Positions 25,776-62,388 of a stretch of 64,000 nt of DNA are shown one piece after another; position 1 is the stretch's first letter, and each line of letters starts with the position of its first letter. The translations under genes and the position numbers were made by a program. The notes under the pieces were generated by a model. The model saw only the letters and a program-made list of their open reading frames with translations. It was not told where the DNA came from and ran no database searches. The stretch covers positions 12,723-76,722 of the forward strand of contig CAZQYX010000002.1 in the NCBI GenBank assembly GCA_964597665.1. Direction: 5' to 3'. Source of the DNA: an uncultured Candidatus Peribacteria bacterium (lineage in GTDB: Bacteria; Patescibacteriota; Gracilibacteria; Peribacterales; Peribacteraceae).

Positions 25776-25847
25776 CGAAATTCCAGAATCCAAATTTCAA
25801 ATTCCAGTAGGGCAACTTGGAATTTGTTTTTTGGATTTTGGATTTTT
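25776..25847. repeat. AATTCCAAA-type periodic inverted repeat (copy A1)
   Basis: gaaattccagaatccaaatttcaaattccag / ttggaatttgttttttggattttggatttt, between convergent genes. Confidence 0.7.
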
Positions 25848-25849
25848 TC

Positions 25850-26119
25850 TTATGTCGATGATTTTGCAGGAGCTGATGATGGCGTCGCTGCAGGTGCCGT
25901 CGGTGCCGGAGCAACCGGAGCAGATTTCTCAGTTGCCGGTTTCACCGCACTATCTGTTTTATAAAAACCGCTTCCTTTGAAATGTACCATTGGTGGAGTG
26001 ATGAGACGCTTTGTCATCCCTTTGCAGACCGGACAGGCCGGAGATTCCTTTGTGCCGAAGGGGAGAGACTTTTGAAACTGCTTGCTGCAGCTGCTGCATC
26101 GGAATTCGTAGTTCGGCAT
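25850..26119 (-). CDS. FmdB-family zinc-ribbon protein with Ala/Pro-rich tail
   Basis: MPNYEFRCSSCSKQF...CPVCKG is the CxxC..CxxC FmdB signature. Confidence 0.8.
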   Translation of the reverse strand: MPNYEFRCSSCSKQFQKSLPFGTKESPACPVCKGMTKRLITPPMVHFKGSGFYKTDSAVKPATEKSAPVAPAPTAPAATPSSAPAKSST

Positions 26120-31773: not shown

Positions 31774-31847
31774 GAAAATTCCAAATTCCAAAAACCAAAA
31801 TCCAAGCAGCGATACGATCTATTGGAATTTGGGTTTTGGTTTTTGGC
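31774..31847. repeat. AATTCCAAA-type periodic inverted repeat (copy A2)
   Basis: gaaaattccaaattccaaaaaccaaaatccaa / ttggaatttgggttttggtttttggc with a 16-nt loop. Confidence 0.7.
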
Positions 31848-31857
31848 TTTTTTTGTC

Positions 31858-32760
31858 TCATCCAATCTTATCTAGCTCCTTCTCCTTAATAAGTTCCATG
31901 TACATGATGGTCCACACGGCCTGCTTGAAGACGTGCAGGTAGGCGAAGAAGTACGCGGCAACGAGTGTCAGAGCAAGTCCGACAAAACCTGCGATCGAAT
32001 AACTGACAATCGGCTGGAAGACGTAGGTGAGCCCGAGCCCGATGCCGAGCATGGCGACCGGAACGAGGACGATCACGAGCGTATTGATGAAGATCCTGAG
32101 CGAAATGACGAGGAGGAGCATCGCGAGGAACATGACGTGCGGCATGTATCCCATGATCAGCTTCACACTCTTGGCCCCGGAGACAAAGATGCTGAGCTTC
32201 TCGACGACGATACCTGGTTCAGTGAAGCTGCTGAAGAATTTCATGATGTTCGAGACGATCCAGACGATCGATGCGACAACGATCATCATGGTTTTCAGCC
32301 CCGCTCCGTAGCGCAGGATAATCGAGATGGCCGTGATGAAGATCGATAGGCTCGAGAAGATGAAGACTTCGTGCACCGCCAGGATCGGGAAGAAGTTATA
32401 CAGAGCGAGGATGAAGCCGCCCTGCACCTTTTCCTTTCCGTGCGCTTTTGCCGTGAGACCGATGATGGCACCGTCCGCGAGACTGGGGACGAAGAGCTCG
32501 ACGATGACGAGCAGGATGAAGGCGATCATCAGGCTTATAAACAACCAGAAGGGGATACTGTTATAGAGGAGAATCTCGATATCGAAGAGCCCTCCGCCTT
32601 CTCCTTTGAAGTAGCTGTAGATGAAGTAGACCTGGTAGACGAGGAGTTTCACGTCGAGCAATATTTCGAAGAACGACCCAAAGAACCCCCAACGTTTGAG
32701 GTGAGACTCGGTCGTTGTGATGGCCCACGCGTGTGCAATGATCTCTCGTGGGGTGAGCAT
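31858..32760 (-). CDS. polytopic membrane protein, function unknown
   Basis: About 7 TM segments. Start placed at ATG 32760 to avoid overlapping the upstream gene. Confidence 0.6.
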   Translation of the reverse strand: MLTPREIIAHAWAITTTESHLKRWGFFGSFFEILLDVKLLVYQVYFIYSYFKGEGGGLFDIEILLYNSIPFWLFISLMIAFILLVIVELFVPSLADGAIIGLTAKAHGKEKVQGGFILALYNFFPILAVHEVFIFSSLSIFITAISIILRYGAGLKTMMIVVASIVWIVSNIMKFFSSFTEPGIVVEKLSIFVSGAKSVKLIMGYMPHVMFLAMLLLVISLRIFINTLVIVLVPVAMLGIGLGLTYVFQPIVSYSIAGFVGLALTLVAAYFFAYLHVFKQAVWTIMYMELIKEKELDKIG

Positions 32761-35874: not shown

Positions 35875-35884
35875 CGGGAGGTGA

Positions 35885-35990
35885 GGAAGGTCGGGTAGGT
35901 TTGGTAGGTACGGTAGGGGACCCACGTTTTTCTTTCAATCAAAAGTAGGTGTCTTTCGACACCTACCCTACTTACCAAACATACCAAACC
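35885..35990. repeat. GGTAGGTT-type periodic inverted repeat (copy B1) enclosing the rplL terminator
   Basis: Left arm aggtcgggtaggtttggtaggtacggtagggg (35885-35919) and right arm cctaccctacttaccaaacataccaaacc (35961-35990). Confidence 0.7.
35941..35966 (-). terminator. Rho-independent terminator of rplL
   Basis: Minus strand reads GTAGGTGTC-GAAA-GACACCTAC followed by TTTT, about 25 nt after the rplL stop. Confidence 0.7.
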
Positions 35991-36383
35991 TTATTTCAGT
36001 GTTACCTTCCCTCCTGCTGCTTCGATCTTCTTCTTCATGTCGTCGGCTGCAGCTTTATCGACTCCCTTCTTGAGTACGGACGGGGCCTTGTCGACTAAGT
36101 CCTTCGCTTCGCCAAGACCAAGCTGCGTGAGCTCGCGAACGACTTTGATGATCGCGATCTTCTGCGCACCTGCTTCGGTGAGCTCGACGTCGTAGCTGGA
36201 CTTCTCTTCGGCTGCTGCTGCGGCCGGTGCGGCTGCTGCTGCGGCTGCAACAGGAGCTGCTGCGGAGATTCCGTACTGCTTCTCCATGAACTTCACGACG
36301 TTATTGAGCTGAATGACGTTCAGCTTCTCGAGTGCGTCGATCACTGCTTGTTCCTCTTTTACGAGGGTGAGTGCGTCTGACAT
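35991..36383 (-). CDS. rplL: 50S ribosomal protein L7/L12
   Basis: Ala-rich hinge and C-terminal domain (KIAIIKVVRELTQLGLGEAKDLVD...). 130 aa. Confidence 0.95.
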   Translation of the reverse strand: MSDALTLVKEEQAVIDALEKLNVIQLNNVVKFMEKQYGISAAAPVAAAAAAAPAAAAAEEKSSYDVELTEAGAQKIAIIKVVRELTQLGLGEAKDLVDKAPSVLKKGVDKAAADDMKKKIEAAGGKVTLK

Positions 36384-37022: not shown

Positions 37023-37237
37023 ACGGGAGAGGGGGACCAAAAAAAAGCTGATCTCCGTCCGGGAGACCAGCGAGGAACACGGCACGATCCACCAAGCCGG
37101 AGCCGGGTGAGCGCTGCTGTACTCCTCGGGAGGATTTACTGTAGGCCTGGGGCCTACGACCTCCGGTCTTCGGACTTGGCTGAAGCATACGCAGGAAGTG
37201 AGAAGATGTCAAATGAAAAGTTAGCAGGTGTGGGAAG

Positions 37238-37291
37238 TGGGGTACGTTGGGTAGGTTCGGTACGTACCAAACGTACCCAACCTACCAAACC
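37238..37291. repeat. GGTAGGTT-type periodic palindrome (copy B2), loopless, centred on GGTACGTACC
   Basis: gtggggtacgttgggtaggttcggtac | gtaccaaacgtacccaacctaccaaacc. Lies between divergent rplJ and relA/spoT. Confidence 0.75.
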
Positions 37292-37330
37292 TTTTCCTTG
37301 TCGCTTTCTGGTATACTTCAAACTCTTCCC

Positions 37331-40566: not shown

Positions 40567-40604
40567 TAGGTAAGGTAAGGAAGGTATGGAAAGTATGGAA
40601 GGTA
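40567..40604. repeat. GGTAAGG/GGTATGG periodic repeat, solo arm (copy B3)
   Basis: gtaggtaaggtaaggaaggtatggaaagtatggaaggtag. I could not find a complementary arm nearby. Confidence 0.5.
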
Positions 40605-41559: not shown

Positions 41560-41617
41560 GAAAATTCCAAAATCCAAATTTCAAATTCCAATTGGTTTTT
41601 GGTTTCTGGAATTTGGC
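41560..41617. repeat. AATTCCAAA-type periodic inverted repeat (copy A3)
   Basis: gaaaattccaaaatccaaatttcaaattccaa / ttggtttttggtttctggaatttggc. Confidence 0.7.
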
Positions 41618-41630
41618 TTTTTCACAGAGG

Positions 41631-42989
41631 TTATCTTGTTATCCGATATCTCACCTTCACAACATCTCCTTCGTCTGTCGCTTCCCATGTGATGCGTGTT
41701 TCTGGGCCGATCATCGATTGCAGCGCCGTCCCCTCTGCGTCAAGCGTTCTCACGAGCCAATCGGTATCAACAGTTCCTCTCATCGATGCTTTCACTTGCA
41801 GTACATCGCTCTGTGGTTCATTGGCTGTACGTATAGCATTTCTGAGAAGACTATGGTCATTACTCAGGAAGATCGTCGTTGCTTTCATAGCAAGAGAAAC
41901 AGAGTGCGTACTGCCTGAGTTGGACGTCAGAAGCGTCCAGCCGTTCTCTGCGTTCAGTGTCTTCTCGAGAGGCGCTGCAATGACATCCGTCCTACTATTG
42001 CCGTGGAGGAATGTCTGCTTCCGAATGACCGCCGGGGTCGCAGCTGAGCGAATGTGTGCAAGCCACTGGTCGATGACGTTTGCATTCTTTCCTTCCATCT
42101 GAAGAAGCATGCTTTGGTCCTCCTCCCCTTGGAACATACTGACACTCAGTCCGTTGTGACCAAGATCTTCCAACGCTGCTTCGATATCGCTCCGATGCGT
42201 CAGTGCTTCCATCCTGTATTGCAGGATACCTTTGAGTCCTTCGACGAACTCCCTGTTAGGGGTCTCCAATTCCTCTTGTAATACTGCGAAGAGAGTGAGG
42301 GGATTGCCGATCGATAGTGAGAAGAGGGGATCCTTGCCTACTCCGATCGTTATCGGGGCTATGCCCGAGAGCAGGGAGAGCGACTGGTTTTTCTTTTCAA
42401 GGATCAAGAGACTCTCGTTCTTGCTGTCGAGAGTTCGCAGTGCCCCCGAAAACATCGAAAGCATCGTGCGGAGACTGCCAGGTTCCGCTGTGTCCGCGAA
42501 CACTACTTTCTCCAGATTGATGAACGTGCAGTTGGAGCTCTTCTTCCCTCCCTGCGTATGGAAGAAATCGGACGCGCCGAATGAGTCTCCGATGCGGTCG
42601 ACCGGAAGGAGGTGACGCGTCTCCGATGATTCGAACATCTTCTGTTCCTGATTCCTCATGTGCACGAGGACGATCCAATGCTGCGTTCCGCTTCCGGTCA
42701 TCAGCGCATACTCATAGGAAACGCCTTCTGGGAGTTTTGGAACAGCGGGCAGTTTCTCATGGCTTAACAGTCGGTTTATATCGACGATGGCCTTTCTAAA
42801 GCCCCCTTCATCCGTGGTACGGGCGAATGCGAGGAGCTCTTCCCGGTCGATGCGGTACGCAAGACTGATCGTCTGCGGTCCGACGGAGCGGATGACGATA
42901 CCGACCCAGAAAATACTGACAAGTGCGAGAGCGAGTCCGATGCTTGCGATGATTGCCGATCGCAGCCAGTGAGGGTGAGGGGATTGCAT
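41631..42989 (-). CDS. single-pass membrane-anchored protein, function unknown (occupies the position usually held by secD)
   Basis: One N-terminal TM (AIIASIGLALALVSIFWVGIVI) then about 420 aa that look extracytoplasmic. No SecD-like multi-TM core. Confidence 0.6.
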   Translation of the reverse strand: MQSPHPHWLRSAIIASIGLALALVSIFWVGIVIRSVGPQTISLAYRIDREELLAFARTTDEGGFRKAIVDINRLLSHEKLPAVPKLPEGVSYEYALMTGSGTQHWIVLVHMRNQEQKMFESSETRHLLPVDRIGDSFGASDFFHTQGGKKSSNCTFINLEKVVFADTAEPGSLRTMLSMFSGALRTLDSKNESLLILEKKNQSLSLLSGIAPITIGVGKDPLFSLSIGNPLTLFAVLQEELETPNREFVEGLKGILQYRMEALTHRSDIEAALEDLGHNGLSVSMFQGEEDQSMLLQMEGKNANVIDQWLAHIRSAATPAVIRKQTFLHGNSRTDVIAAPLEKTLNAENGWTLLTSNSGSTHSVSLAMKATTIFLSNDHSLLRNAIRTANEPQSDVLQVKASMRGTVDTDWLVRTLDAEGTALQSMIGPETRITWEATDEGDVVKVRYRITR

Positions 42990-43160
42990 GTGGCTATGAT
43001 AATAACATAGGCATTTTCAGTGTTTTTCTCTGAATACCTTATTTGATCAAATAAACTATTTTCATAATTTTTCCAGTGCAACTTCTTGTGTAAATTCTTA
43101 GGGTGAGTACAATGACATGATTTCTTCCAAACAAAGAAATCTTTCACATCAAGAGAAATA

Positions 43161-43208
43161 CAAACAAGGCTCCGTCACGTCAGCTTAAGATGACGTGACT
43201 CCGGAGCC
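43161..43208 (-). terminator. long hairpin, probable terminator on the minus strand
   Basis: GGCTCC-GTCACGTCA ... TGACGTGAC-(bulge)-GGAGCC, followed on the minus strand by TTGTTTG. Confidence 0.45.
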
Positions 43209-43520
43209 ACCAATACAAATAGATCCTTCACATCACCCGCCCGTAAACGTAGAGAGGACAGTGCTCGTAGCAACTGCCTCCGGTCACCGTCCTCTCTGCT
43301 CTGTAATGTCGCCCCTTCTTTAGAGAGAGTTTGAGGGGGTGCGCCCCCTTTCTCCCCAGTGTTCTCCCGGAGCCTTTTGGCACCGCGCGATGGACCGGTA
43401 CGGGGACTTCGTCTAGTCACGAGGAGAAACAAGAGACTATAGCAAGGCAGAGTTTCGGGCTCCTCCCCATGTAGACCCTCCGCACGAAGGCTCAGTGGAA
43501 GTTTCCAACCCATTCATCCA
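43209..43520 (-). ncRNA. candidate structured non-coding RNA, class unassigned
   Basis: GC-rich block flanked by AT-rich DNA. The only ORF (43175-43513) is R/E/G/L/P-rich and not protein-like. Several strong local stems (GGGGG-cgca-CCCCC; AGAGAGGAC...GTCCTCTCT). Ends at a hairpin. Confidence 0.3.
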
Positions 43521-43752
43521 TTGATAGCCGAGGAGGCGAATACAAACACAAAAAGGCCAGCAATGGTCTTTTTGTTTATATTCAAGAAAGACAAACCTCC
43601 GGCTCCCAGCGACAAGCTCTTGAGCGGAGCGAAAGGCTTGTTGCGCAGTCCTTGTGGGATTTTTCTTTCTTGGACTCTTTTTTTATGGGGCTGCTTTTTC
43701 TTGCCCTTGCGTTCTAGTAGTGCAACTATTCTGGTACTTTCCCTTTATTTCT

Positions 43753-44010
43753 ATGCCTGAGAGCGTTTCTAATCGCAGAGAGTTCTTGAGGGACTGTAGT
43801 TACGGGGGTCTTGGTGGAGCAATCGGAGCGGGTGTGAATTGTCCTTCTAATGTTTCAAAAGTTCAGAAATCAATGGCAATGGCTTTCGGAGGAATATGCG
43901 GAGCAACGCTAGCGACGTTTGGTATAATCGTGAGGCACTACGATGCAAAGGAGAAAGAAGAAATTGAAGCCATTCTTTCTGAATGCGATGAACCTCCCAA
44001 AGGAGGTTAG
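43753..44010 (+). CDS. small protein (85 aa) with twin-arginine-like N-terminus
   Basis: MPESVSNRREFLRDCSYGGLGGAIGAG resembles an S-R-R-x-F-L Tat motif. Start taken at ATG 43753. Confidence 0.4.
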   Translation: MPESVSNRREFLRDCSYGGLGGAIGAGVNCPSNVSKVQKSMAMAFGGICGATLATFGIIVRHYDAKEKEEIEAILSECDEPPKGG

Positions 44011-44092
44011 TAGATGAGATCATGATTACAGAGTTATTCGTTTCAGAAACGAAGAAGTACTTCAGGAATTGCCGAGAGTGCTGCGATATATT

Positions 44093-44224
44093 ACAGCCCT
44101 CACCTCCCGGCCTCCTCTCCAGCGGTCTGGAGAGGAGGGGGCCTGAGTTTTTCTTTGATTACGGACATTTCTCTCTCCGGAACGCCGGAGAGAGATGTCG
44201 CATCAGCGACAGAGTGAGGGCTGT
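44093..44224. repeat. multi-hairpin repeat element, copy R1 (second copy at 62240-62363)
   Basis: Closing stem ACAGCCCTCA...TGAGGGCTGT around three hairpins. Shares a nearly identical roughly 55-nt core (gattacggacat..tctctctccggaacgccggagagagatgtcgc) with R2. Confidence 0.8.
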
Positions 44225-44240
44225 ATTAAGGAGATGTGTA

Positions 44241-45572
44241 TTAATCCGTCTTCCTCATCATCTCCTGTACCTCCAGCGCTTTTCTGTTCCTTGGGTCAAT
44301 TCTGAGTGCACTCTGGAGATAGTTCTCTGCATCAGTTTTGTTTCCGGCAGCGAAGGAGGCTTTTGCCGCAAGTGCGAACGCGGAGGCGTCATTTGAGAAA
44401 CGAGCGAGAGCTTTCTTCGCAAGTGTCAGGGCATCCTGCAGATGACTGGATGACGTTATTCCCAAAGTGACCGCGCGTTCATAGGCACGGATATCACTGT
44501 CGCTCCGGAGCGCAAGTGTTGTCAGTTCCTCCAGTGCGAGATCGGTATTGCCGAGTTCGAGTGCGTACTCCGCAAGCAGTTGTCTCGCTTCGCGTTCGGG
44601 TGTGAAGCCGTTTAAGAGTGCGTACTGCAGGAACGTCACGGCGTTCTGCGGATCGCCGAGCGCCGCATGCACTCGTGCGAGGAAGTACTGGATCTCTGGC
44701 TTTTCGGGGTCGAGCGAGTATGCTTCTTCAAGTGAGGTGAGTGCGTCTTTCAGGCGCTCCGAGGTGAATTCGCAGTATCCTTTCACGATCCATGCGTCGC
44801 GGTAGCGTTCCTGTTTCAAAATTACCGCTTGCAAGAGAGGAAGGGCCGTCTCGCATTCGTTCACCTGTGCGAGAGACCTGGAAAGAAGTGTCAGGAGATG
44901 AATGTCCTGGCCTTCGGGGAAGAGTGCAAATTCATCGTAAGCAGTGAGGATGATATTCGCGTACGTCCGAATCGTTGCATCGTTTCCGGCGACTGCAAGT
45001 GACAGTTTGTTCTTCGCAGTCTCATGGTCTCCTCCCGAGATCGCAACCAGTGCCATTCCGTATTGCGATTGAGGCAGATCCGGAGAGCGGGAAAAAATGT
45101 CAGAAGCTCCTTTTCTGTCTCCGCTCCGGAGCGCAAGCAAGCCTTCGAGGAGCACGATGTCACCCGTCTTCGGGTTCGCTGCCTTCAGTGACTCGATTGT
45201 TTCTTTGACACCGTCGAACTCGCGCCGTTGCAATTGGATACTCGCAAGCTTCTTGAGTGCCGGAGACCCGCCGCCGGCTTGCACGCTCTGGGCATAGTGA
45301 TCCTGCGCCTGTTTCCATTCGCCTTTCAGTTCGAAGATCTCGCCCTGGCGGAGTTCCAGGAGCGCTTCGGACTGGTTGGGCACAGTGATGAACGATGCTT
45401 CTCCCGTCGGGAGAATCTTCCTGATCATCGCCGCCTCTTGGCCACGATTCTGGAATGATGATTCGATGGTGCGGACGGAGGCATGGATCTGCCAGAGAAA
45501 GATCGCTGCAGAGGCACCACTGAGGACCAGTGCGATGACGATCGGAACGGCGATGCGCGGAGGAATCTTCAC
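44241..45572 (-). CDS. TPR-repeat protein with N-terminal TM anchor
   Basis: Multiple TPR-like units (AQDHYAQSV, ALVAISGGDHETAKNKL, EIQYFLARVHAALGDPQNA). GTG 45572 (MKIPPRIAVPIVIALVL) is preferred; the track ORF to 45698 reads through a repeat arm. Confidence 0.7.
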   Translation of the reverse strand: MKIPPRIAVPIVIALVLSGASAAIFLWQIHASVRTIESSFQNRGQEAAMIRKILPTGEASFITVPNQSEALLELRQGEIFELKGEWKQAQDHYAQSVQAGGGSPALKKLASIQLQRREFDGVKETIESLKAANPKTGDIVLLEGLLALRSGDRKGASDIFSRSPDLPQSQYGMALVAISGGDHETAKNKLSLAVAGNDATIRTYANIILTAYDEFALFPEGQDIHLLTLLSRSLAQVNECETALPLLQAVILKQERYRDAWIVKGYCEFTSERLKDALTSLEEAYSLDPEKPEIQYFLARVHAALGDPQNAVTFLQYALLNGFTPEREARQLLAEYALELGNTDLALEELTTLALRSDSDIRAYERAVTLGITSSSHLQDALTLAKKALARFSNDASAFALAAKASFAAGNKTDAENYLQSALRIDPRNRKALEVQEMMRKTD

Positions 45573-45623
45573 GGAGGTGAAGAGTATCACCTCTAAGGTA
45601 TCGAAGGCGAAAAGAAAACGACG

Positions 45624-45752
45624 GGAAGGTTTGGTAGGTTGGGTAGGTTCGGTAAGCCCCTCCATTTCTCCATGGAAAAAACTTTCAGTGAATAGCAATG
45701 GATCTTGTTTTGTTCCCTACCCAACCTACCAAACATACCAAACGTACCTCAC
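45624..45752. repeat. GGTAGGTT-type periodic inverted repeat (copy B4)
   Basis: Left arm ggaaggtttggtaggttgggtaggttcggtaag (45624-45656) and right arm ccctacccaacctaccaaacataccaaacgtacctcacc (45715-45752). Confidence 0.75.
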
Positions 45753-45753
45753 C

Positions 45754-46419
45754 TTACTCCTCCATCTTCGGACTCATCTCTCCGTCATCATTCTTCTTCG
45801 CTTTTGATGCTCGTGTCTTTGGCTTCTTCTCACCGTCCGATTCCTCCACACCGACGGTCGCGCGTGCAGCGGCTTCGACAATGTGTCTCGGAATGATGGC
45901 TTCGACGGTTCCCCACGTTGCGGTTCCCTTCTTTGGAACGAGGATCGTGACCTGATCGCCGATTTCGGCGCGGTAGAACGTGACGGACGCGAGGAGCAAG
46001 CGATAGGCTTTTCCCTCAGCCAATACTTTGTACTGTCCGTCTTCCTGAATGAGCACGCCGACCATCGTTCGTCTCTCGACGGGTGCGATCTGCTTGTAGA
46101 TGAATTTGCCCTCGTCGGTGATACTGAGCTTCATGCCGTCACCCTCCACGAGCTTGCTCTTCGACGCATAGTTCGCGGGAATCGGATACGTCTGACCGAG
46201 CGAGTCGACCATGTTCTGTCCATCGAAGACGCCTTCGATGATTTTTGAGGTGCTTGGGTTATAGGCACTCATGCCGATTGAACTTGCTTTCGAACTGAGT
46301 CTCTCGCGCGAAGGATCGCTGATTCCGGTCACCTCCCGCAGGAGGCTGTTTGCGGTCTTCAGTGAACTCATGGCGGAATCGATCAGTTCCTGGATCGAGA
46401 GGAGATTGTCGTCTGACAT
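45754..46419 (-). CDS. hypothetical protein (221 aa) with Lys-rich C-terminal tail
   Basis: Clean ORF. No family recognised. Confidence 0.55.
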   Translation of the reverse strand: MSDDNLLSIQELIDSAMSSLKTANSLLREVTGISDPSRERLSSKASSIGMSAYNPSTSKIIEGVFDGQNMVDSLGQTYPIPANYASKSKLVEGDGMKLSITDEGKFIYKQIAPVERRTMVGVLIQEDGQYKVLAEGKAYRLLLASVTFYRAEIGDQVTILVPKKGTATWGTVEAIIPRHIVEAAARATVGVEESDGEKKPKTRASKAKKNDDGEMSPKMEE

Positions 46420-51785: not shown

Positions 51786-51838
51786 ACGCAGGCGGGATTG
51801 TACTGATTTTTCGGTTGCGTCACTAGGCGAGAAAAAAA

Positions 51839-51927
51839 GTTTGGTAAGTTTAGTAGGTTCGGTAGGTTGAGAATATTGAGGTTTCGATACTTTCCACACC
51901 TACCAAACATACCCCACCTACCAAACC
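51839..51927. repeat. GGTAGGTT-type periodic inverted repeat (copy B5)
   Basis: Left arm gtttggtaagtttagtaggttcggtaggttg and right arm acacctaccaaacataccccacctaccaaacc. Confidence 0.75.
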
Positions 51928-51991
51928 TTTCCCTGTTCCAAAGAAAGTATTGCAGAATGATTGTTTTAGGGAGTACACTTCCCGAAATACC

Positions 51992-53118: not shown

Positions 53119-54285
53119 ATGGACATTTCCTCACTTCTCTCCGACTACGATCTTAAAAATCTCACCATCGGTGTGCTCGGCGGACACAGCGCGCTCGATG
53201 TGTGTCACGGAGCGAAGCAGCATGGATTCCGTACGGTGTGCGTAGCTCGGAAGGGGAGAGAGCAGACGTACGAAAAATATTACAAAACGAGAAATTCCAA
53301 AAACCAAAAACCAAATTCCAATAACGATTCAATTGGATGCATTGACGACGTGATCGTGGTTGATCAGTTTCAAGATGTTCTTGATGAAAAGATAGAAAAA
53401 AAGCTGCAAAGTATGAACACAATATTTGTTCATAATCGGTACTTCTGGGTGTACTTCGATGACTTCTCGAAGGTCGAAAATGATTTCAATGTTCCGATCT
53501 TCGGGTCACGCACACTGCTGAAATTGGAAGAGCGCGATCAACCGTTTAACCAATATGATTTACTCAAGAAAGCAGGCATTCGGATTCCGAAAATTTTCAA
53601 ATCTCCAAAAGAGATCGACCGACCGGTTCTCGTGAAGGCCGCGGAAGCGAAGAGGGGATACGAGCGTGCGTTCTTCATCTCGACGTCTCCGAAAAGTTAT
53701 GAAGCGACTGGGTCTGCACTCGAGGCGGACGGAAAAGTTTCGAAGAACTGGCGAGAGGCGACGATCGAAGAATTCGTCGTCGGTGCTCCCGTAAATTTTA
53801 ATTTTTTCTACTCGCCTCTCTCAGGCGAGCTTGAGCTGCTTGGTACTGACACACGTCGTCAGACCAACCTCGATGGTTTCCTGCGAATGACGGCCGATCA
53901 GCAAACTCTTGCGCTGAAGCACGTTCCCCTCAAGATGATCGAGACAGGACATATCGCATGCACGGTGAAAGAATCGATCCTCGAGAAAGCATTCGACTTG
54001 GGTGAGAAATTTGTGAAAGCGACGCAGTCACTTCCGGCGAATCTTGATCCGAGCAAGAAAGGCATCATCGGACCGTTTGCACTGCAGGGTGCAGTCGTTG
54101 CGGAAGATGGTAAAGAAGACATCGTGATCTTCGATGTCTCGCTCCGTATTCCCGGCTCACCCGGCATCGCCGCGACTCCGTACTCAGGGTATTTGTACGG
54201 GAAGAGTATGAGTGTCGGGGAAAGAGTAGGACTTGAGATAAAGAATGCAGTACAACAGAAGAGACTCCTGGAGATTGTGACGTAG
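53119..54285 (+). CDS. purP: PurP-like ATP-grasp enzyme, paralogue 2 (carries a repeat-derived insertion)
   Basis: IGVLGGHSALDVCHGAKQHGFRTVCVARKGREQTYE... and an ATP-grasp C-domain. Collinear with paralogue 1 except for an insertion near residue 58. Confidence 0.78.
   Translation: MDISSLLSDYDLKNLTIGVLGGHSALDVCHGAKQHGFRTVCVARKGREQTYEKYYKTRNSKNQKPNSNNDSIGCIDDVIVVDQFQDVLDEKIEKKLQSMNTIFVHNRYFWVYFDDFSKVENDFNVPIFGSRTLLKLEERDQPFNQYDLLKKAGIRIPKIFKSPKEIDRPVLVKAAEAKRGYERAFFISTSPKSYEATGSALEADGKVSKNWREATIEEFVVGAPVNFNFFYSPLSGELELLGTDTRRQTNLDGFLRMTADQQTLALKHVPLKMIETGHIACTVKESILEKAFDLGEKFVKATQSLPANLDPSKKGIIGPFALQGAVVAEDGKEDIVIFDVSLRIPGSPGIAATPYSGYLYGKSMSVGERVGLEIKNAVQQKRLLEIVT
53291..53321. repeat. half-copy of the AATTCCAAA-type repeat inside the purP-2 reading frame (copy A4)
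   Basis: gaaattccaaaaaccaaaaaccaaattccaa is translated in frame as NSKNQKPNSN. Confidence 0.7.
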
Positions 54286-60356: not shown

Positions 60357-60415
60357 AAAAATTCCAAATTCCAAAAATCAAAATCCAATTGGAATTTGGC
60401 TTCTGGAATTTGGTA
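60357..60415. repeat. AATTCCAAA-type periodic inverted repeat (copy A5)
   Basis: aaaaattccaaattccaaaaatcaaaatccaa / ttggaatttggcttctggaatttggtatttt with no loop. Lies between divergent ruvA and the M23 peptidase gene. Confidence 0.75.
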
Positions 60416-60469
60416 TTTTGTTGTTCATTTTCTCTTCAAAAACCCCTCTTTTTGTGCTATAGTATTGGG

Positions 60470-62233
60470 ATGCTTTTACGCAAACAAACACACAAAAAAA
60501 CGATCGCAATTGTTTTGGCATTCTGCGTGTTCGTTCCGCTTGCTGCCTTTGGTGCGCAGGGCTCGGAACAACTCCGCGATATGAGAGGACAGTTTGACGA
60601 GCTCTGGCATTCCGCTGCGGAGACAACGAAGCGCAGAGCCACACTCGAACAGAATCTTGTACAATTTGATGTGAAGGTGGCAAACGCGAAGCGCGATCTG
60701 GAGAAGGCGGCCATGGATCGCAGAGACAACCGCCAGCAGATCCTCGATCGTCAGAAACTGATCGATGTTCTGAATCTGCAATTGCACGCGGCAGCAGAGT
60801 CACGAGGGCTCTATGAAGCGGTCGCTGTCAGCCAGAAGGACGATATCGTGTCTTTCATTCGTTATCTCTCGGGAAGGGAAATCGCTCTTCGGGAGAGCGG
60901 ACCTGCAGTCGGCGGGTCGCTTCTGAAACATATTCTCCGGGGATCTCTTGGGAGTAGTGTCGATGAGTCGCTTGCAGAGACCGCGCTCCTTAGGACGCGC
61001 AGACGTTTCGCACTGCAGATCGATGTGCTCGTAAGCGAAGCCGACAGAGCGGAATCGCGCATACGGTCTGTCCTTGCAGATCTCATCCAGGAGGTCGACG
61101 GACTCGAGGAGAGAGGCAAGCATCTCACGCAGACAGTCGAGAGACAGACCGCACTCATCGATGACAGTTGGCGCAGGAAGGAGCTCAGTCAGGAAGAACT
61201 TGGTAACGTCACCCAGGAAGCAGCAGAAGCGAATGCACGTATCGGATTGATGCAAGCCAGTCTCCTCAAAATCAATGCCGAGCTTCGTGAGGAGACACTG
61301 AATACTCTCCGTAGTGATCTTGCCGCTCTGCAGTCGCAGCGTCAGTCGCTCCAAGAAACTCTCACGGCGCTCCAGAGGAAAGACCTCGCGATGAGTCTTT
61401 TAGAAACAGCAGGCGAGCATGCGTTCGAGGATATGCAGAAAGAGCGCAACACGGATAAGAAAATCTATAAGCGCATCGAAGATGCGGAGCTTCGGCTGGA
61501 GCAACTTCAGAAAAATCAGAGCGAACTCTTCGTCACTGCATCCGGGTCCGAGACTTTTTCTTCGTCTGCAGAGGCATCGCAATCTGCAATCGATGGACTC
61601 AAAGAGGTGATCCTCCTGATGAAGACGGGAGTGCCCGAGGATGCCGCAGAAGAATATTTGCAGAAGAAGCATCAATCGGAGCAGGCTTCGGTTCTGCGCA
61701 AAGATCTTGCCGTAGAGATTACAGGAAGCATCAGAAAAATAACCGCACTCGAAGCGTCGATCCTCACGAAGGAACAGGAACTACAGAAGACCGAAGAGGC
61801 CTCGGACCTGAGCGATCTTCCTCCACTGTTTCAGTGGCCGGTTGCTGGCCCCGTCACGGCCGGATACTTCGACCCCGATTACCGGAAGGTCTTCGGTGTG
61901 CCCCATAAGGGCATGGATATCGCAGTACCTCAGGCATCACCGATTCGTACCGTTTCGCAGGGAATCGTGTTCGCGGTGAAGGACGGCGGAAGAACAGGAT
62001 ACAGCTATATTTTGATCGGACATCAGAACGGGTATGCCTCACTCTATGGTCACGTGTCGGCGTCGTTCGTGAAGGCAGGAGACAAAGTCGGCTATGGTTT
62101 CATCATCGGCCTCACCGGCGGGCAGCCGGGAACGCATGGGGCGGGATACATGACGACGGGAGCACATTTGCATTTGGAGATGATGAAGAATGGTGTGCAT
62201 TTGAATCCGTTGGGGGTGCTGAGTGGGAGGTAG
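60470..62233 (+). CDS. M23-family metallopeptidase with long N-terminal coiled coil (EnvC-like layout)
   Basis: Signal/TM, about 400 aa of coiled coil, then HKGMDIA...GHVS...GAHLHLEM (HxxxD and HxH motifs). Start at ATG 60470. Confidence 0.85.
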   Translation: MLLRKQTHKKTIAIVLAFCVFVPLAAFGAQGSEQLRDMRGQFDELWHSAAETTKRRATLEQNLVQFDVKVANAKRDLEKAAMDRRDNRQQILDRQKLIDVLNLQLHAAAESRGLYEAVAVSQKDDIVSFIRYLSGREIALRESGPAVGGSLLKHILRGSLGSSVDESLAETALLRTRRRFALQIDVLVSEADRAESRIRSVLADLIQEVDGLEERGKHLTQTVERQTALIDDSWRRKELSQEELGNVTQEAAEANARIGLMQASLLKINAELREETLNTLRSDLAALQSQRQSLQETLTALQRKDLAMSLLETAGEHAFEDMQKERNTDKKIYKRIEDAELRLEQLQKNQSELFVTASGSETFSSSAEASQSAIDGLKEVILLMKTGVPEDAAEEYLQKKHQSEQASVLRKDLAVEITGSIRKITALEASILTKEQELQKTEEASDLSDLPPLFQWPVAGPVTAGYFDPDYRKVFGVPHKGMDIAVPQASPIRTVSQGIVFAVKDGGRTGYSYILIGHQNGYASLYGHVSASFVKAGDKVGYGFIIGLTGGQPGTHGAGYMTTGAHLHLEMMKNGVHLNPLGVLSGR

Positions 62234-62239
62234 TTCTTT

Positions 62240-62363
62240 ACAGCCCTCATCCCCGTCCCTTCTCCAGATTCTGGAGAAGGGTGCGCAGCTATTTTTGATT
62301 ACGGACATTCTCTCTCCGGAACGCCGGAGAGAGATGTCGCCGCAGCGACAGAGTGAGGGCCGT
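62240..62363. repeat. multi-hairpin repeat element, copy R2
   Basis: Same architecture and core as 44093-44224. Hairpin 1 differs by paired (compensatory) changes. Confidence 0.8.
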
Positions 62364-62388
62364 TTGCGGAGCAATTATCAGTGATTTT

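Follow-up and report, generated by a model that had tools for sequence, protein, structure and literature searches.

Repeats of the BoxC/PIT/TM kind, known since the 1990s, have been reported from more than 260 genomes, and to our knowledge no origin, enzyme or function has been assigned to them. The work on BoxC, PIT and TMECO is reportedly that of Bachellier et al. in the 1990s and of Hoyne and Maher in 2000. Another described system, REPIN-RAYT, pairs REP doublets with a Y1 transposase that is inherited vertically and present in single copy. DUF559, a large protein family, has a solved structure (3HRL), and we know of no role for it. BoxC is listed in PMC2267715. The intrastrand triplex motif was studied by Holder et al. 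2015 (PMC4666352), where an E. coli example unit reads CCCTCTCCC-TGTG-GGAGAGGG-CCG-GGGTGAGGG, and where TMECO is described with 23 copies in K-12, five in inverted pairs, and with TTA or CCG as loop 2. According to the same study, no mobility genes have ever been found near TM motifs, and in vivo footprinting of E. coli TMs did not support a stable triplex. Here we describe a repeat element that is present twice, as copies R1 and R2, in a stretch of 64,000 nucleotides (the window) from an uncultured Candidatus Peribacteria bacterium, which is part of a 109-kb metagenome contig. With a probability of roughly 70%, we regard the two copies as non-coding, DNA-level mobile repeats of the BoxC/PIT/TM kind that are tied to DUF559 as their putative cognate nuclease.

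The original prediction, made from the letters of the window, had proposed an element of about 130 nt in two copies of the same orientation, and both copies were confirmed at the given positions, on the plus strand (Table 1). They share 95% identity over the 3' 56 nt and 78% over the 5' 27 nt, with no similarity beyond the limits of the element. The hairpin-2 palindrome of 26 nt is found exactly twice in the 64-kb window and in none of 100 shuffles, the window likewise contains exactly two instances of the 14-nt TTGATTACGGACAT, and a search of the window with a covariance model of the family returned no copy beyond R1 and R2. The flanks and flanking genes of the two copies are unrelated; therefore a local duplication that took the flanking genes along, which the original prediction had named as a competing explanation, does not account for them. 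The predicted anatomy, with terminal inverted arms, three hairpins and a conserved core, proved right. Both copies are much more stably folded than shuffles (z = -8.0 for R1 and -6.6 for R2 on the plus strand, -8.9 and -9.6 on the minus strand). Hairpin 1, given as common to both copies, has the proposed sequence in R1 but not in R2, where it reads CCCTTCTCCAG-att-CTGGAGAAGGG and differs from that of R1 through compensatory changes. R2 takes up most of the 155 nt that separate the convergent M23 peptidase and rsmI genes. R1 has a 118-aa ORF on one side and the TPR gene on the other and is not purely intergenic, since the remnant of a DUF559 gene runs into its hairpin 1. We agree that the ORFs across the copies (44022-44396 and 62039-62374) are spurious.

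Table 1. Positions of the two repeat copies, their parts and the DUF559 remnant in the window
Feature	Coordinates	Strand	Remarks
DUF559 (Vsr-like PD-(D/E)XK nuclease) remnant	44018-44146	+, frame 2	last 42 codons only, without start codon
R1, complete element	44093-44224	+	inverted pair of triplex-motif units round a spacer; 149 bits against the family model
R1 left unit	44098-44138	-	CCTCCTCTCC / loop AGACCGCT / GGAGAGGAGG / loop CCG / mirror block GGAGGTGAGG; 10 perfect purine-motif triads; hairpin 1 plus 5' arm of the original prediction
R1 spacer motif	44157-44168	+	GATTACGGACAT, unpaired, near-invariant in the family
R1 right unit	44170-44219	+	TCTCTCTCC / GGAACGCC / GGAGAGAGA / loop 2 = hairpin 3 / mirror block AGAGTGAGG; 9 perfect triads
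R1 hairpin 3	44196-44211	+	loop 2 of the right unit
R2, complete element	62240-62363	+	124 bits against the family model
R2 left unit	62245-62281	-	CCCTTCTCC / AGAATCT / GGAGAAGGG / ACG / GGGATGAGG; 9 perfect triads
R2 spacer motif	62297-62308	+	GATTACGGACAT
R2 right unit	62309-62358	+	TCTCTCTCC / GGAACGCC / GGAGAGAGA / hairpin 3 / AGAGTGAGG; 9-10 perfect triads
R2 hairpin 3	62335-62350	+	

Each half of the element is a unit in which a pyrimidine block is followed by loop 1, a complementary purine block, loop 2 and, as the mirror image of the first purine block, a second one. Since the two mirror blocks end in TGAGG-GCTGT, they pair with each other, which is what the original prediction had described as a closing stem. 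The arms of this stem do pair; in addition, each is a mirror repeat of the purine strand in the hairpin next to it, a point that had been missed, and they are therefore the third blocks of triplex motifs. The hairpin of a pyrimidine block and a complementary purine block round a short loop was found in all four units of R1 and R2, and all four contain 9-10 perfect purine-motif triads, scored as G.G:C, A.A:T and T.A:T. They are the sole such units in the 64-kb window, and 20 shuffled windows contained none. Among 19 copies of the family, 35 of the 38 half-units reach 9-10 perfect triads, compared with 0 after shuffling, and a matching third block is present for each of the six duplex variants, which constitutes three-way covariation. 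In the family alignment, paired cells amount to 98%, and double-change cells number 28 compared with 9.6 in shuffles. Covariation is seen only at the hairpin tops, as at those of hairpins 2 and 3 in the right unit of R1, while the sequences of the basal stems are invariant. Loop 2 measures 3 nt in left units (CCG, ACG and others) and is a hairpin of 13-19 nt in right units. The spacer motif has the variants GAGTACGGACAT, GATTACGGGCAT and GATTACAGACAT in the family, and its GGACA has an alternative pairing with TGTC(C) 3' of hairpin 2. With terminal inverted arms of 10-11 nt (ACAGCCCTCA(C) / (G)TGAGGGCTGT), the element is short, non-coding and bounded by inverted repeats, in the manner of a MITE.

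Element length is 124-138 nt in 18 of the 19 copies, and the remaining one (L015:4340-4502, linked to DUF559) has 163 nt because of a nested insertion, a 30-nt extra hairpin inside the loop of hairpin 2. A variant in sequencing run X4 lacks hairpins 2 and 3, with GATTACGGACA joined straight to GAG(C)GAG. The extra hairpin and the deletion suggest that the element is assembled from nested modules and loses them.

Three identities had been offered for the element: a small RNA family, a protein-binding DNA element and a MITE-like element. A functional RNA on the plus strand, either an sRNA gene or a 3'-UTR module that stabilises or processes an mRNA, would agree with the strong conserved secondary structure and its compensatory changes, with the invariant unpaired 12-nt motif, with the co-orientation of most copies with the upstream gene and with a basal T-G pair, tolerated on the plus strand only, in the closing stem of 7 of the 19 copies. 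However, the Rfam scan that had been suggested gave no match at the gathering or a relaxed threshold, apart from a whalefall-1 match on R1 (17.9 bits against a gathering threshold of 37) that is absent from R2 and was therefore treated as chance, and R1 and R2 have no promoter-like or terminator-like sites, so that, as far as could be tested, we rejected an independent sRNA gene. A search for RNA sequencing runs containing the sequence found none. In 15 of the 19 copies the fold of the minus strand is as good as that of the plus strand or better, and the stems are almost purely Watson-Crick, with 1-3 G-U per 41-60 pairs; folding energies and G-U counts show no asymmetry that would assign a strand of action. 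Related members lie at the R2 site in the opposite orientation, one copy sits between divergent genes, two are antisense to a neighbouring RNA gene, and insertions are flanked by duplications, all of which argues against an RNA, as does the finding that E. coli PIT/TM elements have no promoter or terminator activity (PMC4666352). We therefore consider a functional RNA highly improbable and favour a MITE-like or other DNA element. Other classes were rejected in their turn: an integron attC site (no R'/R'' core sites and no cassette array), an intrinsic terminator (no T-run), a retron ncRNA (no reverse transcriptase nearby) and an omega-RNA-like guide (the element is dispersed without a partner gene).

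R1 and R2 belong to a larger family. When one genome per species was scanned for the exact pattern, 12 further copies turned up, all of them in five Candidatus Peribacteria MAGs and eight in a single one. Two more copies were found in JGI metagenomes, and a covariance model of the kind that had been suggested, built from 14 copies, found divergent relatives in the fetched loci. The original prediction had allowed for the two copies being alone; they are not, given those in other genomes and metagenomes. Dozens of contigs from unrelated lake, freshwater and groundwater runs match positions 44093-44227 only and then continue into unrelated flanks. Runs containing this genome cover the flanks at a depth of 12-14, but the core sums to about 400 over 25-34 contigs. 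Two scans of viral contigs for phage carriage found nothing.

Target-site duplications were another of the suggested checks. R1 and R2 show no flanking duplication, whereas some other copies do. At L009, a 17-nt direct repeat (GGTCTTTTTGTTTATGG, at 2566-2582 and 2756-2772) flanks a 173-nt insert consisting of the element and short extensions. This 17-mer is the tail of the neighbouring terminator and is single-copy, as an empty site, at the same place in L017 and in the window. Duplications of 27 nt (L007), 10 nt (L011) and 9 nt (L006) flank other copies, so that four copies have duplications of no fixed length, one of them with matching empty sites; over all cases the lengths range from 8 to 27 nt, and those of 8 nt could have arisen by chance. 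Two relatives with RsmI 90-91% identical have, at the R2 site, divergent family members in the opposite orientation, and a relative with RsmI 79% identical has no member and an unrelated spacer of 108 nt. Along the stretch from a conserved RNA-like region to the TPR gene, both the number and the type of copies differ from genome to genome. Copies were found between convergent, tandem and divergent genes, insertion sites often lie directly 3' of terminators or between convergent genes, and orientation showed no relation to local GC skew. The family is thus multi-copy and dispersed in Peribacteria, its copies have inserted at new sites, and they turn over at orthologous sites.

This turnover also bears on the protein-binding candidate, that is, on a domesticated binding or chromosome-structuring site with a host function, such as has been proposed for REP/BIME with gyrase or IHF. 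The invariant basal stems, the invariant spacer motif and the placement between convergent genes would suit a site of that kind. However, its presence, absence and orientation vary at orthologous sites among close relatives, and no partner protein is indicated except DUF559. We judge such a site very unlikely and see no indication of a host function for R1 and R2.

The conserved RNA-like region deserves description in its own right. Window positions 43086-43580 (+) hold a non-coding stretch of about 450 nt with 81-83% DNA identity, compared with 65-74% in neighbouring protein genes, and it is syntenic in L003:3640-4140(-), L007:2175-2700(-), L009:2100-2590, L015:2810-3340, L017:3470-3985 and L018:3290-3800. 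It contains a promoter-like TTGTGT-16 nt-TACAAT (43086-43113) and a terminator (43548-43575), which is an insertion hot spot for the repeat family. RNAalifold on seven sequences predicted 102 pairs, 25 of them with compensatory changes. Neither Rfam nor, for tmRNA, ARAGORN gave a match. The region is a candidate for an unknown or very divergent structured RNA of Peribacteria.

The window contains two more families of repeats. The first (35878-35997, 37225-37298, 45617-45760, 51836-51934 and also 40572-40602) consists of long palindromes between genes, with arms built from 3-4 tandem units of 9 nt (GGTAGGTTN ... NAACCTACC), with predicted hairpins of -36 to -57 kcal/mol. The second (25777-25856, 31775-31861, 41561-41631, 53291-53323 and 60358-60428) consists of A/T-rich intergenic palindromes with 8-nt periodic arms (AAATTCCA / TGGAATTT), for example in the gap between ruvA and the M23 peptidase gene, and could represent bidirectional terminators or protein-binding arrays.

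A gene remnant is fused to R1. This DUF559 remnant reads DHDYRVIRFRNEEVLQELPRVLRYITALTSRPPLQRSGEEGA* and has 71% identity with residues 100-141 of the protein P0001 (E = 2e-15, tblastn); its stop codon, TGA at 44144-44146, lies just 3' of hairpin 1. At the syntenic locus, the gene is intact in five relatives (L003, L007, L015, L017 and L018), where it matches Pfam PF04480 (E = 1.4e-34) with 3HRL as the closest solved relative. There, too, the stop codon lies just past hairpin 1, and the element spans the gene end. Its intact state in these relatives, at the corresponding locus, shows that the gene has been vertically inherited and has decayed in the genome of the window; the synteny of the orthologues likewise means that the gene itself is not hopping. 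R1 is the residue of a resident DUF559 locus after gene decay, and R2 is a dispersed copy. This fusion, the triplex-motif halves and the tie of the family to DUF559 genes are the points that the original prediction did not see.

Two small genes neighbour this locus. A 111-aa HNH-like gene, with a weak Pfam HNH match and a weak PADLOC PtuB match, lies directly 5' of the syntenic DUF559 gene at L003:3054-3389(-) and L015:3605-3940(+) and is absent from the window, L017 and L018. The 118-aa ORF beside R1 (43654-44010, +) has no Pfam match, sits where relatives have the HNH-like gene and the 5' part of DUF559, and may be lineage-specific or spurious. As for DUF559 itself, a defence role was rejected, the only hit being a weak PADLOC match to a methyl-directed restriction enzyme.

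The repeats accompany DUF559 genes well beyond this locus. The HNH-DUF559 gene pair of L003 and L015 has a second, inverted copy upstream of it, and in L018 a hybrid element lies upstream of the DUF559 gene. A second DUF559 paralogue (L024) is located inside an inverted pair whose arms (GTCCTCA...) match the dispersed subfamily found at the R2 site (L028). Hairpins of the form CCCTCTCC..GGAGAGGG with GGGTGAGG-type arms were seen at each of five further DUF559 loci, namely ycjD of E. coli K-12 and those of Nitrospirae, Bacteroidia, a 39%-GC genome and another Peribacteraceae genome. Altogether, palindromes of similar type were found within 400 nt of all 11 DUF559 loci inspected, which represent six independent gene lineages including ycjD. 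Under a strict rule of perfect triads, units were confirmed at 8 of the 11 loci and never in shuffles. Consistently, tails that are translated hairpins (..PSP..GEG..) occur in 26 of 120 DUF559 homologues compared with 0 of 120 RsmI homologues, and the reading frame of the tail differs between lineages, indicating that the DNA and not the peptide is conserved. DUF559 and the repeats are therefore physically linked in at least four phyla, E. coli K-12 included. Among the papers that could be searched (subscription journals lay outside the search), we found none linking DUF559 to such repeats, and the association appears to be unreported.

E. coli allowed gene and repeats to be compared across many genomes of one species. 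In K-12, the region 3' of ycjD contains a degenerate hairpin that spans the stop codon, a duplicate, likewise degenerate, of the gene's 3' end, and TMECO number 9. The published supplement names fabI and ycjD as the neighbours of TMECO number 9 and draws no link (PMC4666352). The partial duplicate, which lies between ycjD and TMECO number 9 (L032; NC_000913.3, 1351194-1351760), together with the TMECO recalls the layout of R1, a gene 3' end plus a repeat. The gene is single-copy in 3378 of 5426 complete E. coli genomes. The E. coli motif occupies a median of 19 places per genome. In an evenly spaced sample of 60 genomes, there were 11-26 places in ycjD-positive genomes (n = 37) and 1-12 in ycjD-negative ones (n = 23); with the ycjD locus excluded, the medians were 16 and 4, respectively (Mann-Whitney p = 1.6e-9). 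ycjD is found in phylogroups A, B1 and C, and eefRABCD takes its place in B2, D and E (PMC12817139). Because the presence of ycjD follows phylogroup, this contrast represents few independent events; it fits a partnership of DUF559 with the repeats without proving it.

These observations have to be weighed against the possibility that the repeats are mobile elements of the BoxC/TM kind whose enzyme is not DUF559. The DUF559 gene would then be a selfish, free-standing nuclease gene of the homing type with a preference for landing in or next to these multi-copy palindromes, or gene and repeats would have accumulated together at permissive sites, and the repeats would be moved by something else, for example the RAYT of this genome or host replication and repair. 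Vsr-like nucleases have indeed been proposed as homing endonucleases (PMC2677866), an HNH gene adjoins DUF559 in L003 and L015, DUF559 occupies two positions, inside a pair or upstream of a whole pair, a true RAYT (NF047646, 105.9 bits) lies about 4.7 kb beyond R2, and GTAG occurs within the outer arms of some copies. However, the DUF559 orthologues sit at one syntenic locus across genera and are single-copy, and the arms of each paralogue match a distinct dispersed subfamily. The RAYT, for its part, is accompanied by GTAG-CTGGGACGCSGCGTCCCAG REPs of its own that are unrelated to R1 and R2 and do not appear in the window, and E. coli lineages without ycjD have few copies of the motif. We therefore hold it unlikely that DUF559 is a bystander. 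The RAYT gene itself is at L001:5534-6010, corresponding to about 67054-67530 in window numbering, just outside the window, and is flanked by GTAG-CTGGGACGCSGCGTCCCAG palindromes.

Taking the repeats as mobile DNA with DUF559 as their putative nuclease, we propose that during replication or repair the elements are active in a single-stranded or extruded form, which may be a hairpin, a cruciform or a purine-motif triplex. The Vsr-like DUF559 nuclease would be the cognate enzyme that nicks or processes the folded unit, and by analogy with the RAYT transposases of REPINs, such nicking or processing might copy or maintain the repeats. More speculatively, the flanking duplications of variable length would be compatible with nicks that are staggered, or with repair synthesis, at targets rich in hairpins. 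Units that bear DUF559 share arms, hairpin and spacer with the family, as a parent of MITEs would, but DUF559 is not a proven transposase. Since the syntenic DUF559 gene is dead in the genome of the window, R1 and R2 may be inert relics. The model of a mobile repeat leaves the invariant unpaired GATTACGGACAT unexplained; the motif could reflect an RNA or protein-binding role, and so could the frequent co-orientation with the upstream gene. The wider proposition, that DUF559 proteins, small Vsr-like nucleases that form a very large orphan family, are dedicated partners of BoxC/PIT/TM repeats across bacteria and recognise and copy, maintain or process the folded unit, is a tentative one, to which we give somewhat less than an even chance.

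The kind of repeat is already known. New are its occurrence, in composite form, in a CPR lineage, the three-way covariation as evolutionary support for the mirror block, and direct evidence of insertion, the first for BoxC/PIT/TM repeats. If the partnership is real, it would be a second nuclease-repeat partnership similar to REPIN-RAYT, in which the nuclease is of the PD-(D/E)XK type and the DNA motif is triplex-capable, and would give a joint function to E. coli YcjD and the BoxC repeats, orphans for 30 years. Two orphan problems would thereby merge into one that can be tested in a model organism with YcjD and TM oligonucleotides. For annotation, the repeats account for the '...PSP..GEG..' tails on DUF559 proteins and for spurious ORFs over repeats.

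Among described systems, BoxC/PIT/TMECO is similar to R1 and R2 in the order of the blocks and in the blocks themselves (CCCTCTCC / GGAGAGGG / GGGTGAGG). The types of loop 2 are shared, with CCG in R1 and TTA in the relative at L028, and so are the inverted pairs, the intergenic position in either orientation, the tens of copies per genome and the rearranging loci. However, the TMECO consensus (CCCTCNCCC N3-6 GGGNGAGGG N3 GGGNGAGGG) has no match on either strand of the window, the right unit has a hairpin of 13-19 nt instead of the 3-nt loop 2, and the element, of about 130 nt, has a conserved 12-nt spacer motif and a CPR host. The missing consensus match, the loop-2 hairpin and the conserved GATTACGGACAT together make R1 and R2 a variant and not the same subfamily. 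Unlike the published TMECO work, in which no mobility or enzyme partner was found, our analysis adds flanking duplications and the link to DUF559.

Correia/NEMIS and ERIC/IRU MITEs resemble the family as non-coding, folded, intergenic elements of 100-150 nt with terminal inverted repeats and flanking duplications, but in the R1/R2 family the duplications are of variable length (9-27 nt), G-rich mirror blocks form the arms, and no parent bearing a DDE transposase is known. The Vsr-like homing endonucleases (Dassa et al. 2009, PMC2677866) recall DUF559 as small genes of the Vsr fold that are selfish or element-associated and have hairpins by the ORF; in contrast to DUF559, they belong to another subfamily, split protein genes or lie in introns, and have no dispersed repeats (PMC2677866).

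REPIN-RAYT parallels the proposed partnership in several respects. In both, short palindromic units form an inverted doublet, the dispersed copies are non-autonomous, the nuclease gene is single-copy and syntenic and has its own type of repeat on its flanks, gene and repeats form cognate subfamilies, and lineages without the gene have few repeats. The core here lacks the GTAG/CGTC tag, GTAG being confined to the outer extensions of some copies, and the RAYT of this genome is flanked not by these repeats but by unrelated REPs. In contrast to REPINs, the units have a third mirror block and flanking duplications, and the partner is a Vsr-like PD-(D/E)XK protein, DUF559, in place of an HUH Y1 transposase.
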